Positions 2,596 to 6,931 of a stretch of 64,000 bases of DNA are shown here, piece by piece (within the stretch, counting starts at the first letter, position 1; each line of letters begins with the position of its first letter). The stretch comes from a virus. Where the stretch lies: positions 96,001 through 160,000 of IMG/VR virus record IMGVR_UViG_3300015360_000024. One strand, written 5' to 3'. Below the pieces are notes generated by a model, which did not search any database, had not been told where the DNA came from, and was given only the letters and a program-made list of their open reading frames with translations. The translations under genes and the position numbers were made by a program.

Positions 2596-3615
2596 ATGAT
2601 TCACCGTTACCCAATCCAGCTCACGACCCTCGAAGAGGATTTCCGCGCCATCGGCCTTCTCCCCGCGAAGGACACGCAGGAGATCTCCGAGACCGACGAC
2701 TCGGCATCTCCGCGTGACATCCCGTCGCCGGATCCGAGCACGGCCGCCGGTAATGACGATAGCCAGGCTACGCCGGCTCGTCACAAGTACGCCAAGCAGC
2801 TCAAGCCGAAGCAGTCTCCAGACGACGGCAATGGTGAGTACGACATCGATTCCGATGGCGGCTCCCAGAAGGGCAAGGGCGGCGGATCGTACTCGCCTCC
2901 TCACGGCGGCAAGGAGTCCCGCGTCAAGTCCGAGGACGGTCACGTCAACGCTGGCTACAAGCTCCTCAAGAGCAAGATCATGAAGAACGTCAAGGACAAG
3001 GGTCAGGCTCCGGCCGTCGCCCAGGGCCGTGCGCCGGTCAAGAGCATCGCCGGCATGAAGAAGGAAGGCGCCAACCTCAGCCGCGCTGCTGAGCTGGTCA
3101 GCGAAGTTGAGGCCCTCCTCAATGGTTCGCAGATGGACGAGGAGTTCAACGGCCTTGTCCATGGCTTCAACCTCATCGGTGAGAACTGTTCGCTGTTGGC
3201 GAACCGCCTCGTCGACATCGCCGAGCACTACAACGTCGACAAGGCGATCTCTGCGATGGAGAGCCTCTACAACAACGCCATCGAGGCGGTTGGCATCCTT
3301 GAGGATACCGCGAAGGCCAAGGAAGACGAGGAAGACGAGGAAGATCTCGATCTGGAGTCCGTCAAGGACGCTTTCCGCCAGATGACGCTGACCCTCATGG
3401 ACGCCGTCGAAGCGTACGATGCCACCATCTCCGAGATGAAGAAGGACGATGATGACGACAAGGACGACGACGATGATTCGGATGACGACGACTCGGACGA
3501 CGATGACGATGATGACTCGGACGACGATGATGACGACTCGGACGACGACAAGGGTGGAATCGCCGCCCGCATGGCGAAGCTGAAGGCAGGCAAGAAGGGC
3601 CCTTTCGGCAAGTAG
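2596..3615 (+). CDS. Highly acidic putative prohead core/scaffold-type protein with an Asp-rich tail
   Basis: Good SD (TAGGAG); codon usage strongly biased to C/G endings like the capsid gene; position corresponds to the T4 prohead-core genes between portal and protease. Confidence 0.7.
   Translation: MIHRYPIQLTTLEEDFRAIGLLPAKDTQEISETDDSASPRDIPSPDPSTAAGNDDSQATPARHKYAKQLKPKQSPDDGNGEYDIDSDGGSQKGKGGGSYSPPHGGKESRVKSEDGHVNAGYKLLKSKIMKNVKDKGQAPAVAQGRAPVKSIAGMKKEGANLSRAAELVSEVEALLNGSQMDEEFNGLVHGFNLIGENCSLLANRLVDIAEHYNVDKAISAMESLYNNAIEAVGILEDTAKAKEDEEDEEDLDLESVKDAFRQMTLTLMDAVEAYDATISEMKKDDDDDKDDDDDSDDDDSDDDDDDDSDDDDDDSDDDKGGIAARMAKLKAGKKGPFGK
3445..3549 (+). repeat. GAC/GAT poly-Asp low-complexity tract with repeated (D)nS units
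   Basis: DDDDDKDDDDDSDDDDSDDDDDDDSDDDDDDSDDD read directly from the sequence. Confidence 0.9.
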
Positions 3616-3635
3616 GGCTCAAGACTGAGGAGCCC
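3600..3635 (+). other. Candidate -1 programmed frameshift signal: C CCT TTC heptamer, 8-nt spacer, GGGCTC/GAGCCC hairpin
   Basis: X XXY YYZ heptamer at 3600-3606, correctly phased, two sense codons before the TAG; hairpin 3615-3635; -1 frame open to 3842. Confidence 0.6.
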
Positions 3636-3842
3636 AGGGCCAGACGTACGGCCTATTCATCAGGACGCCGCGAGATGGCGTTTGGAATCGAACCCAGAGA
3701 CGGTCTAGGAGGAAAATCGACGAGGAACCCAAAGAGACGAAAAGCGCAGTCAGGACTCGGTTTCGAGTACGACGTCGGCTTTAAGTCTCCTTTGAGCGCC
3801 AGATCGGATTTTCGCGGGACCTTCAGGTGGCTGAGAAGATAA
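3606..3842 (+). CDS. Basic 78-aa -1-frame extension of the 2596 ORF (or an independent 55-aa ORF from ATG 3675); absent from the ORF track
   Basis: Manually translated RQVGLKTEEPRARR...GTFRWLRR*; its TAA (3840-3842) overlaps the protease ATG (TAATG coupling). Confidence 0.55.
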   Translation, partial: RQVGLKTEEPRARRTAYSSGRREMAFGIEPRDGLGGKSTRNPKRRKAQSGLGFEYDVGFKSPLSARSDFRGTFRWLRR

Positions 3843-5434
3843 TGAGCAAATCAAAACTACTCGTCGATACGCTGACCTTCAGGGCCACAACCCTGGAGGA
3901 GAGCAAGTCGGGTCCAGGCAAGTTCATTGCCAGGGGTGAGTTCGCTCGTTCGGATCGCGCCACCGAGAACAAGCGTCTCTACCCGGCCACGCTCTGGGAG
4001 CGTGAGATCGGTCGCCTCGCGAAGGCGATGAAGGAAATGAAGGTCTACGGCGAGCTGGACCATCCAATGGATGGACGCACCCAGCTCAAGCGCGTCAGCC
4101 ACATCATTTCCGACCTGCACATGGAAGGCGATGTCGTTGTCGGCACCGCTCACATCCTCGATACCGACGAGGGCCGCAACCTCAAGGCAATCATCGAGGC
4201 CGGTGGTGCAGTTGGTGTTTCGTCTCGTGGGTTCGGCACCACGAAGCCAAATCTCAAGGGCGAAGAAGTCGTTCAGGCGGACTACCGCTTGATGACGTTC
4301 GACTTCGTTGCTGAGCCCGCACAGCAGAGCGCGTACCCAGAAATCAACGTCGAGAGCGCTCCGGCGCCTCGCGCAGTGGAGGCAGCTTCTATGGATGAGA
4401 ACATGACCTGGGAAGAGTTCAAGGCGGCTCATCCGCAGCTTGCCGAGCACTTCACTGACGATGCTGAGCGCGAGTACGAGAAGCGTGCCGCCGAGATCTG
4501 GGCCAAGAAGATCCTTGGCGCCAAGCAGGAGGCGGCTACCAATCTTCGTGGCGAATTCGCCGAGAAGCTTGCGACTGCCGTTGCTGACGCCAAGAAGGAG
4601 ATGGAGAAGGCCGTCACTGAGCGCCTCACCAACGATCCTGCCGTTGCCGGCGCGAAGAAGACGCTTGCCGAGCTGAAGGATCTACTCCGTCCGTGGATCA
4701 TCCCAGCTGACGTTGAGTCGGTCGTCAAGGCGAAGGAAGAGGAAGTTGCGCAGCTGGAGTCCCAGCTGGCCGCCAAGGATCTGGAGATCGCGAATCTCAA
4801 GACCGAAGCCCTCAAGCTCGCCGCCATCGCCAAGGAAGCCGGCTACAGGTATCACCTGGAGCAGCGCCTCAACGACATTGGCCACGCGGACGAGATCCGC
4901 GCCATGGTCGGCGACGTCAAGCAGTTCAAGACCCTCAAGGAGTTGGACAAGCAGATCGTCGTGATCGCTGAGTCCATCATTGCCAGGGATTCCGAGGTCG
5001 CCAAGCGCGACACGGAGATGACTTCCCTCAAGGAAGAGGTTGCTCGCCAGAAGGAAATCGCCGAGAAGGCGCTGGAAGCGACCAAGCACCTCGCAGCCCA
5101 GGTCTACCTGGAGCAGCGCCTCGCAAATCACCCGAACCAGGAGTACGCACGTACCCTGACGGAGGCATCGCGCCCGTCGACCAAGGAAGAGGTCGACTCG
5201 CTGATGACTAAGACCCTGCCGAGGGCTTCGGTAAACGAAGACATCGAGGCCGCTCGCGCGCGAGTTCGTCAGTTGACGAACAGCAACACACGCGAGTATC
5301 TGCAGGAGCAGGAAGAGGGATCCCAGAGAGGCGCCAATAATGGTGCCGCTCGCGATTACAACGGGCTCGGAGCGAATCTCGATGAGATCCGTGCCCTATC
5401 GGGGCTGCCGGACAAGGGCACTCAGAGCAACTAG
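3842..5434 (+). CDS. gp21: Prohead protease (T4 gp21-like) fused to a long coiled-coil scaffold-like domain
   Basis: GELDHP...VSH...GVSSRGFG...FDFVAEPA matches gp21-family catalytic His/Ser motifs; the C-terminal ~350 aa is coiled coil. The track start is GTG 3827; I prefer ATG 3842 because of the TAATG overlap. Confidence 0.9.
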   Translation: MSKSKLLVDTLTFRATTLEESKSGPGKFIARGEFARSDRATENKRLYPATLWEREIGRLAKAMKEMKVYGELDHPMDGRTQLKRVSHIISDLHMEGDVVVGTAHILDTDEGRNLKAIIEAGGAVGVSSRGFGTTKPNLKGEEVVQADYRLMTFDFVAEPAQQSAYPEINVESAPAPRAVEAASMDENMTWEEFKAAHPQLAEHFTDDAEREYEKRAAEIWAKKILGAKQEAATNLRGEFAEKLATAVADAKKEMEKAVTERLTNDPAVAGAKKTLAELKDLLRPWIIPADVESVVKAKEEEVAQLESQLAAKDLEIANLKTEALKLAAIAKEAGYRYHLEQRLNDIGHADEIRAMVGDVKQFKTLKELDKQIVVIAESIIARDSEVAKRDTEMTSLKEEVARQKEIAEKALEATKHLAAQVYLEQRLANHPNQEYARTLTEASRPSTKEEVDSLMTKTLPRASVNEDIEAARARVRQLTNSNTREYLQEQEEGSQRGANNGAARDYNGLGANLDEIRALSGLPDKGTQSN

Positions 5435-5449
5435 AGCACGGAGGATTTT

Positions 5450-6931
5450 ATGGAAGCGAGACAGCTAATGTTGACTGAGAACCGGCGGTCGATTGCCGAC
5501 AAGGGGTTCATTCAGTCCCTCATTGGAAAATGGGGAGAACTTCTTGAGGGGATCGACAACCCCTACACCCGTGGTGTCACGGCGATGCTCATGGAAAATG
5601 AGTCGCAGTGGCTCCAGAACATGGAGGAGGAGACCAAGACGCTCAACGTCGGCTCCTTCACCAAGTTCATCTTTCCGGTTCTCCGGAGGGTGTTCCCGAA
5701 CCTGATCGCCAACGAGATCGTCTCGGTTCAGCCGATGACGGCCCCGATCGGCGCGGTGTTCTTCTTCGACTACAAGTACGGGTCGAACAAGGGCTCCACC
5801 CAGGCTGGCGCGGTGTTCCCGCGCGACTTCGATCGCGACTACTCCTCGGAGTTCGTGCGCGACGAGCAGCTGGCCCTCGGCGACGGCGCTGCCTACGGTG
5901 GTGCTGGCGCGGCTCTCGCGGCCGTTCTCTCGTGGACTCCGGTCCGCCCGCTGAACGCGTCGCTGGGCTTCTCGGTTCAGATCCTGGAACTCAACCCGAC
6001 CACGGGTGCGATCGTCCAGACTGGTACCGACAACGGCTCCGGTGGCTTCACCGGCGCCGTCACGGCCGGCGCGGTCAACTACGGCTCGGGTGCGGTCACG
6101 GCGTTCAAGTTCACGACGGCCCCCGTCCTGAACAACAAGATCGTCGCCCGTTACTTCTACGACGGCGAGCTGAACACCAAGATCCCGCAGGTCAACCTCG
6201 ACATCACCAAGCAGCCCATCGAAGCGATCCCGCGTCGCCTCAAGGCTCTTTGGTCGTCGGAAGCGGCCGAGGATCTGCGCGCGTTCCACGGTCTCGACGC
6301 AGAGACCGAGCTGGTCTCGGGTATCGCTCAGGAGATCGCTCTTGAGATCGACCGCGAGATCATCAACGACCTGTACGTGACGTCGGCCTCGGGCCGCACG
6401 GACACCTTCTCGCTCACGCCGCCCGCCGGCATCAGCGAGCTGGATCACCTCCGGTCGATGATCACCACGATCAGCAAGATCTCGAACTTCATCCACAAGG
6501 ACACCCTTCGCGCCCCCGCGAACTTCCTTGTGACGTCGCCCGAGGTCTCGGCTCGTCTGGCGCAGCTCACCACCCATGGCGACTTCCGTCCGCTCTGGGT
6601 CTCCGGTGGCGCGAGCCCGTACGGCCCGGCTGACATGCCGCGTCCTCTGACGCAGCACGGCCAGTTCGGTATCTACAAGGTCGGCACCCTCATGAACAAG
6701 TGGGTGGTCTACGAGGATCCGTTCTTCGAGTCGGACAAGATGCTTGTCGGTCTCAAGGGCGCGAGCTTCCTGGATGCCGGCTACGTGTGGGCGCCGTACA
6801 TCCCGCTGCAGGTCACGCCGACGTTCCTCGATCCGGCGGACTTCTCCTACCGTAAGGGTCTCCGTACCCGATACGGCAAGAAGGTTCTCCGTAGCGAGTA
6901 CTACGGCCGGATCACCTTCACGGGTCTCTAA
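5450..6931 (+). CDS. gp23: Major capsid protein, T4 gp23-like
   Basis: PNLIANEIVSVQPMTAP.G, RRLKALWSSEAAEDLRAFHGLDAETEL, EIDREII, GYVWAPYIPL, GLRTRYG motifs; strong SD (GGAGG); followed by a terminator. Confidence 0.97.
   Translation: MEARQLMLTENRRSIADKGFIQSLIGKWGELLEGIDNPYTRGVTAMLMENESQWLQNMEEETKTLNVGSFTKFIFPVLRRVFPNLIANEIVSVQPMTAPIGAVFFFDYKYGSNKGSTQAGAVFPRDFDRDYSSEFVRDEQLALGDGAAYGGAGAALAAVLSWTPVRPLNASLGFSVQILELNPTTGAIVQTGTDNGSGGFTGAVTAGAVNYGSGAVTAFKFTTAPVLNNKIVARYFYDGELNTKIPQVNLDITKQPIEAIPRRLKALWSSEAAEDLRAFHGLDAETELVSGIAQEIALEIDREIINDLYVTSASGRTDTFSLTPPAGISELDHLRSMITTISKISNFIHKDTLRAPANFLVTSPEVSARLAQLTTHGDFRPLWVSGGASPYGPADMPRPLTQHGQFGIYKVGTLMNKWVVYEDPFFESDKMLVGLKGASFLDAGYVWAPYIPLQVTPTFLDPADFSYRKGLRTRYGKKVLRSEYYGRITFTGL

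Follow-up and report, generated by a model that had tools for sequence, protein, structure and literature searches.

An acidic gene in the head module of an uncultured T4-like phage very probably ends in a programmed -1 ribosomal frameshift, a reading that draws on the comparison of nucleotide and predicted protein sequences. The gene lies in a window of 64,000 nucleotides, positions 96,001 to 160,000 of an IMG/VR virus record of 194 kb (IMGVR_UViG_3300015360_000024), at whose left end a T4-type head module is found. According to the mechanism that we propose, most ribosomes would stop at the TAG at 3613-3615 and give an acidic protein of 339 aa, and a fraction would slip back one base on the heptamer C CCT TTC as the P-site tRNA-Pro and the A-site tRNA-Phe re-pair in tandem, probably assisted by the nearby stop and by one or two hairpins that begin 8 nt downstream. 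The slipped ribosomes would then read 78 codons in the -1 frame, giving a protein of 415 aa in which the acidic body is followed by a basic tail, predicted to be disordered. The head module is organized as follows:

2-1525, Portal_T4 gene, encoding a T4-like portal
1607-2560, gene for a protein of 317 aa without assigned function, between the portal gene and the acidic gene
2596-3615 (+), acidic poly-Asp gene between the portal and protease genes; 0-frame product of 339 aa, pI 4.3
Between the end of the acidic gene and the protease start, a stretch of about 225 nt without a conventional gene
3842-5434 (+), gene for a 530-aa protein in which a prohead serine protease (Peptidase_S77, T4 gp21-like) is joined to a scaffold-like coiled-coil region
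5450-6931, gp23-like major capsid gene, separate from the frameshifted gene

Judged by synteny (T4-like portal, the gene itself, S77 protease-scaffold and gp23-like capsid), the acidic gene is likely a head or prohead-core gene. Its acidic body gave no match in a Pfam search and a single weak match, to a virion structural protein, in PHROG, and the acidic protein that occupies the same position in phage PA5oct is annotated as a structural protein with ESI-MS/MS evidence. The upstream proteins of the family, otherwise very divergent, share the N-terminal sequence LTTLEEDF..IGLLP with an invariant E and G (2596-2670 in the window, with its homologs in alignment A6), which may be a targeting or a protease-cleavage signal, by analogy with the L/I-x-E sites of T4 core proteins. 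The coiled-coil region fused to the S77 protease comprises about 350 aa and, because of this fusion, T4 gp21 and a gp22-like scaffold seem to be one polypeptide here. The same protease/coiled-coil fusion is present in the annotation of Rhizobium phage RHph_TM21B. ARAGORN found no tRNA or tmRNA genes in the 64-kb window.

The acidic ORF ends in GGC CCT TTC GGC AAG TAG, with the stop placed two codons past the heptamer. The elements of the putative signal and of the extension are:

3600-3606 (+), slippery heptamer C CCT TTC, a phased X XXY YYZ with 0-frame codons CCT and TTC; Pro would re-pair from CCT to CCC and Phe from TTC to TTT
3607-3614 (+), 8-nt spacer, covering the terminal 0-frame codons GGC and AAG and bases 1 and 2 of the TAG (3613-3615)
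3615-3635 (+), hairpin 1, candidate stimulator; GGGCTC (3615-3620) paired with GAGCCC (3630-3635), a G+C-rich stem of 6 bp with a loop of 9 nt
3637-3654 (+), hairpin 2, a 5-bp stem directly 3' of hairpin 1
3606-3842 (+), extension in the -1 frame, 78 codons plus TAA; basic tail of pI 11.6, predicted to be disordered
3642-3668 (+), conserved motif RRTAYSSGR, in the coding region upstream of 3675
3675-3677 (+), in-frame ATG inside the extension, start of a mechanically called ORF of 55 aa (3675-3842)
3822-3830 (+), C-terminal motif F-R-W
3840-3844 (+), TAATG, in which the TAA of the extension (3840-3842) overlaps the protease ATG at 3842

The original prediction had described a correctly phased heptamer, an 8-nt spacer followed by the GGGCTC/GAGCCC hairpin, and an open -1 frame of 78 codons with 20 Lys/Arg and 8 Asp/Glu whose TAA overlaps the protease ATG, and each of these elements is present in the sequence at the coordinates given above. 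The -1 frame is open from 3534 to the TAA, and the predicted products are 339 and 415 aa long, the longer with the junction peptide KGPFRQVGLK. The gap was scanned for promoters, terminators and Rfam families, and none was found. An overlapping heptamer, G GGC CCT at 3597, was discarded as a slip site, being unconserved (missing in relatives L002, L013, L004, L006 and L071), and transcriptional slippage was dismissed in view of runs of just 3 nt.

The extension behaves as a protein-coding sequence. Among six members of the window's clade, the variable columns at codon positions 1, 2 and 3 of the -1 frame number 36, 25 and 69, respectively, and a variability dominated by third positions is likewise found in four other clades. 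The coding signature extends to 3606-3674, upstream of the ATG at 3675, and between the heptamer and this ATG the Arg codons swap between CGN and AGR with the residue unchanged. Furthermore, the tail sequence is conserved across relatives whose proteases are only 32-40% identical. These comparisons demonstrate, in our view, that the tail is under purifying selection from the slip site onwards. The codon at 3675 is ATG in the window, L004 and L006, TTG in L002 and L003, and GTA in L013; since close relatives carry TTG or GTA at this position, the ORF of 55 aa is not the unit under selection, nor is it the functional unit, because RRTAYSSGR lies upstream of 3675. In alignment A5, which comprises 38 tail sequences, R, R, Y, S, G, R and G in or just after RRTAYSSGR are invariant, the T and A of the motif are nearly invariant, and so is the W of the C-terminal F-R-W. 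Conservation of F-R-W merely through its overlap with the ribosome-binding site of the protease gene was considered and rejected: its Arg codon varies among AGG, CGT, CGC, CGA and AGA, which indicates a constraint on the protein and not only on the ribosome-binding site. AlphaFold2, run with the family alignment, gave a low-confidence model (pLDDT 60) with no secondary structure, and the tail is best regarded as a basic peptide, disordered and bearing two short linear motifs. It also contains a conserved G-x-E position, a candidate protease cleavage site; the cleavage specificity of the phage's protease was unreadable from the capsid N-terminus. Searches of Pfam and PHROG with the tail gave no match.

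The arrangement is shared by a large set of relatives. Through the protease, 21 related viral contigs were fetched, with protease identities from 82% to 32%. Almost every one of these contigs has, in the gap, coding sequence for a homologous basic peptide that runs up to the protease start, in agreement with the earlier proposal that the -1 extension fills an otherwise empty gap. Further loci came from searches of viral and metagenome contigs with alignments of the tail peptide, and the resulting census holds 42 distinct loci with the tail motif, 40 of them evaluable. Homologs without the heptamer or without the open -1 frame had been named as the observation that would speak against the original prediction, and the census came out in its favour: at 38 of the 40 evaluable loci, the tail is encoded in the -1 frame relative to the upstream gene, with an in-phase canonical X XXY YYZ heptamer inside the frame overlap at 35 of these 38. 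The tail frame has no ATG, GTG or TTG before RRTAYSSGR in 33 of the 38, and the 0-frame stop follows the heptamer after 0-2 codons in most loci. The shortest overlap (10 nt, in L036) consists of the heptamer and the stop, so that the shift is possible nowhere else at that locus. At 37 related loci, the frequency of in-phase XXXYYYZ heptamers in the remainder of the upstream gene is 0.13% per codon, from which a heptamer within the last 10 codons is expected in about 1.3% of loci, and it was observed in 33 of the 37, counts that overstate independence because the loci are phylogenetically related and are not 37 independent trials. At the level of sequence, the census thus establishes that a diverse clade of uncultured T4-like phages has conserved both the signal and the frame relation.

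A cultured-phage collection, searched at the DNA level and by tblastn, gave no match to the region, to the acidic protein or to the tail, and in the nearest cultured phages by protease (PA5oct, Cr30 and RHph_TM21B) an acidic protein precedes the protease without gap and without tail. A profile search of 1.84 billion representative proteins returned 52 tail matches, almost all of them small ORF calls of 37-135 aa, and seven of the 52 were examined in their genomic context; the search returned no in-frame fusion of body and tail (about 400 aa). A word-indexed search for longer proteins containing the tail also found none, which is weak evidence.

The slip site itself changes along the phylogeny. 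C CCT TTC is invariant in the nine members of the window's clade, G GGA AAC is the most widespread heptamer, and G GGA AAA, G GGA AAG, C CCT TTT and C CCT TTG are found in other clades. A tree of the protease domain requires at least 12 changes of slip site or of expression mode, and the C CCT TTC group forms in it a single well-supported clade nested among lineages with G GGA AAC and with non-canonical sites. The replacement of one canonical heptamer by another with the frame layout kept is the signature that would be expected, from the sequences, of a selected frameshift. Three loci (L007, L009 and L050) retain the -1 layout and have at the slip position only C CCT AYC, with no canonical heptamer. 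The CGC CCT AYC sites are:

L007:5756-5768
L009:3580-3592
L050:2471-2485

L009 and L050 are devoid of any start codon, and L007 has an ATG seven codons before the motif. The lineages with this non-canonical site fall into two distinct parts of the protease tree, and our guess is that these three loci might shift through slippage of the P-site tRNA-Pro alone. At least five relatives carry the tail module as a small gene of its own, with an independent start:

L015:5700-5929, whose start reads GGAGG, 6 nt, GTG
L092:1451-1666
L095:1639-1860, whose start reads GGAGG, 5 nt, ATG
L098:647-952
L099:1501-2109, a version of 202 aa with an internal duplication

Stand-alone forms are found at no fewer than three places among the frameshift lineages of the protease tree, and their existence implies that fusion to the acidic body is not essential everywhere. 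The tail is, therefore, a discrete module able to work unlinked, which most lineages express only through the frameshift.

The RNA structure downstream of the slip site is the weakest part of the original prediction, hairpin 1 being weakly supported as a stimulator in the window's clade. The hairpin is present, and the 54-nt fold reaches -19.6 kcal/mol with z = -2.4, two of 200 shuffles being equally good. Hairpin 1 is retained in eight of the nine clade members, where the synonymous sites are invariant; against its role, no compensatory change was seen in it among the nine members, and the closest relative, L067, has lost four of the six pairs and retains the heptamer. Hairpin 2 has compensatory changes in two of its five pairs among the same nine members. 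Across the family, the 60 nt that follow the heptamer fold better than the 5th percentile of the local background at 18 of 33 loci, the window's own 60-nt fold standing at the 26th percentile, and some clades have stems of 12 bp with z = -5.4. A stimulatory structure appears, on these predictions, to be a feature of the family, and it is plausible for the window locus. Very stable long hairpins, of up to -43 kcal/mol and z = -5.4, are found in L036 (L036:2499-2575), L047, L039, L051, L016, L046, L049 and L053, where they begin 5-9 nt past G GGA AAC. In those clades the hairpins enclose the sequence that codes for RRTAYSSGR, so that stimulator and peptide motif are dual-coded there.

Different explanations for the same layout were weighed against the frameshift. 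The tail could be an independent small gene translated from its own start, the ATG at 3675 (55 aa), with the heptamer as an incidental feature. This ATG has an AGGA 9 nt upstream (its Shine-Dalgarno match is weak, -4.0 kcal/mol), gene callers place many small ORFs in this region, and in L015, L092, L095, L098 and L099 the module does have a Shine-Dalgarno sequence and a start of its own. Nevertheless, a product started at 3675 would lack the invariant RRTAYSSGR, the region 3606-3674 carries an equal coding signature, the ATG gives way to TTG or GTA in close relatives, 33 of the 38 relatives have no start codon before the motif, and the enrichment of heptamers would be left without explanation. 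Translation of the ORF 3675-3842 from its own ATG, which the original prediction had set out as the opposing case, is consequently disfavoured, since the ATG is not conserved and conservation begins at the slip site; we consider it improbable. Termination followed by reinitiation in the -1 frame at a non-canonical codon, which would give a separate tail peptide with no frameshifting, would suit the overlap of the frames by a few codons around the stop in many loci and the stop/start overlaps that are common in this gene cluster. However, the window's -1 frame contains no ATG, GTG, TTG, CTG or ATH codon from 3534 to 3675, and neither a phased canonical heptamer nor its swap for other canonical heptamers is predicted by such a mechanism, which makes it very improbable.

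An assembly or sequencing indel, with body and tail belonging in reality to one continuous ORF, finds an argument in L014 (L014:5780-5840), where the tail is in the +1 frame relative to the acidic gene, a G6 run lies at the junction, and the frame homologous to the window's 0-frame end (PFGK) runs into the tail without a stop. Either a natural in-frame fusion is masked at this locus by a homopolymer error of the assembly, or the locus is a real variant or a different recoding event. As a general explanation, an indel is highly improbable: about 38 contigs, assembled independently from many samples, have the same -1 relation and no homopolymer where body and tail meet, the 0-frame stop just past the heptamer is never missing, and the profile search returned no in-frame fusion of about 400 aa. 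That the gap is non-coding, a regulatory RNA or a spacer in which the -1 frame is open by chance, would agree with a stretch that has neither annotation nor database family; conservation of the protein sequence across relatives with 32-40% protease identity and the dominance of third-position variation effectively refute this reading, whose probability we consider close to nil.

If the tail is produced by frameshifting, as we favour, ribosomes that complete it would terminate on the TAATG and may feed the translation of the protease gene. In nearly all relatives, with frameshift-dependent and with stand-alone tails alike, the tail stop is offset from the protease ATG by -4 to +5 nt, which fits translational coupling. 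The protease gene has a moderate Shine-Dalgarno match of its own (-5.9 kcal/mol), so that coupling is not required by the sequence. It is possible that frameshift efficiency tunes protease translation. In regard to the protein, its similarity in position and charge to known core proteins suggests a prohead-core or scaffold-type component, whose tail may plausibly serve for docking or targeting within the prohead; DNA and the portal are candidate binding partners of the tail. In a wider hypothesis, which we regard as doubtful, the basic tail would be a mobile prohead-core module, gp68-like in function, that has toggled repeatedly between a stand-alone gene and a frameshift-only extension; in the frameshift lineages, the ribosomes that complete the tail would terminate on the protease start and reinitiate, and frameshift efficiency would set the stoichiometry of the tailed core protein and the maturation protease.

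In tailed phages, programmed frameshifting is textbook knowledge where tail chaperones are concerned, and a few capsid and tail proteins are further known cases. Gene 10A/10B of T7 and T3 and gp5A/5B of Lactobacillus phage A2 are head genes in which a -1 frameshift close to the 3' end yields a C-terminally extended isoform as a minor product. Passages of PMC5009743 and PMC10885494 cite the frameshift of A2 gp5A/5B. As predicted for the window's gene, these extended isoforms contain the whole body of the major product; they are forms of the major capsid protein, whereas the window's gene encodes an acidic scaffold- or core-like protein upstream of the protease, with an extension that is a predicted disordered basic tail and ends on the protease start codon. 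The lambda G/GT heptamer, G GGA AAG, is identical to that of the relative L093. In lambda G/GT and its counterparts in tailed phages, as in the window's family, the layout is conserved across very divergent phages and the sequence of the slip site is little conserved; the G/GT arrangement fixes the ratio of short and long forms, and the window's family may be likened to it in this respect. G/GT is a tail gene for unrelated proteins, with an internal shift and a long overlap, whereas in most loci of the window's family the slip would take place 0-2 codons before the stop. The signals of E. coli dnaX and of the IS3 family combine, like the window, a tandem-slippage heptamer with a stem-loop 5-9 nt downstream; the dnaX frameshift, unlike the one proposed for the window, truncates the product. 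An unsystematic look at the family's sequences showed no conserved Shine-Dalgarno-like stimulator upstream of the slip site.

The closest parallel in position is found in T4, where genes 67 and 68 lie, as the window's gene does, between the portal (gp20) and the protease (gp21). In T4 (L066:6782-7449), gp67 ends in a poly-acidic stretch, the C-terminal half of gp68 is strongly basic, and the stop of gp68 overlaps the start of gene 21, an order of charges, acidic and then basic, that the window's body and tail mirror. However, 67 and 68 are two separately initiated genes with no frameshift. Neither body nor tail showed homology to gp67 (PF17634) or gp68 (phrog_1049 and relatives) in Pfam and PHROG, and homology of the tail to gp68, considered for its position and charge, was rejected after hhalign (A1 against gp68) gave a probability of 0.1% and PHROG no match. 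Since no homology to gp67 or gp68 was found, the T4 parallel is an analogy and not a family membership.

The mechanism is ordinary, a standard bacterial -1 tandem slippage as far as the signal indicates, and what is new is the gene family and its context. Our literature search found no case of frameshifting in a prohead-core or scaffold-type gene, and the first 300,000 of the 449,034 characters of the main recoding review contain no mention of 'scaffold' or 'prohead'. Standard gene callers leave a gap of about 225 nt at this locus or call arbitrary small ORFs; because they miss the tail, a whole clade of environmental T4-like phages is mis-annotated. The family offers a natural series of slippery sites and putative stimulators, from weak to very strong hairpins and including C CCT AYC, on one homologous scaffold, which would be useful for defining the rules of bacterial frameshifting. 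It also offers a way to test whether recoding is linked to the stoichiometry of the head-assembly components and, if the doubtful hypothesis of a toggling module coupled to the protease gene were true, one recoding event would gate the maturation of the head.
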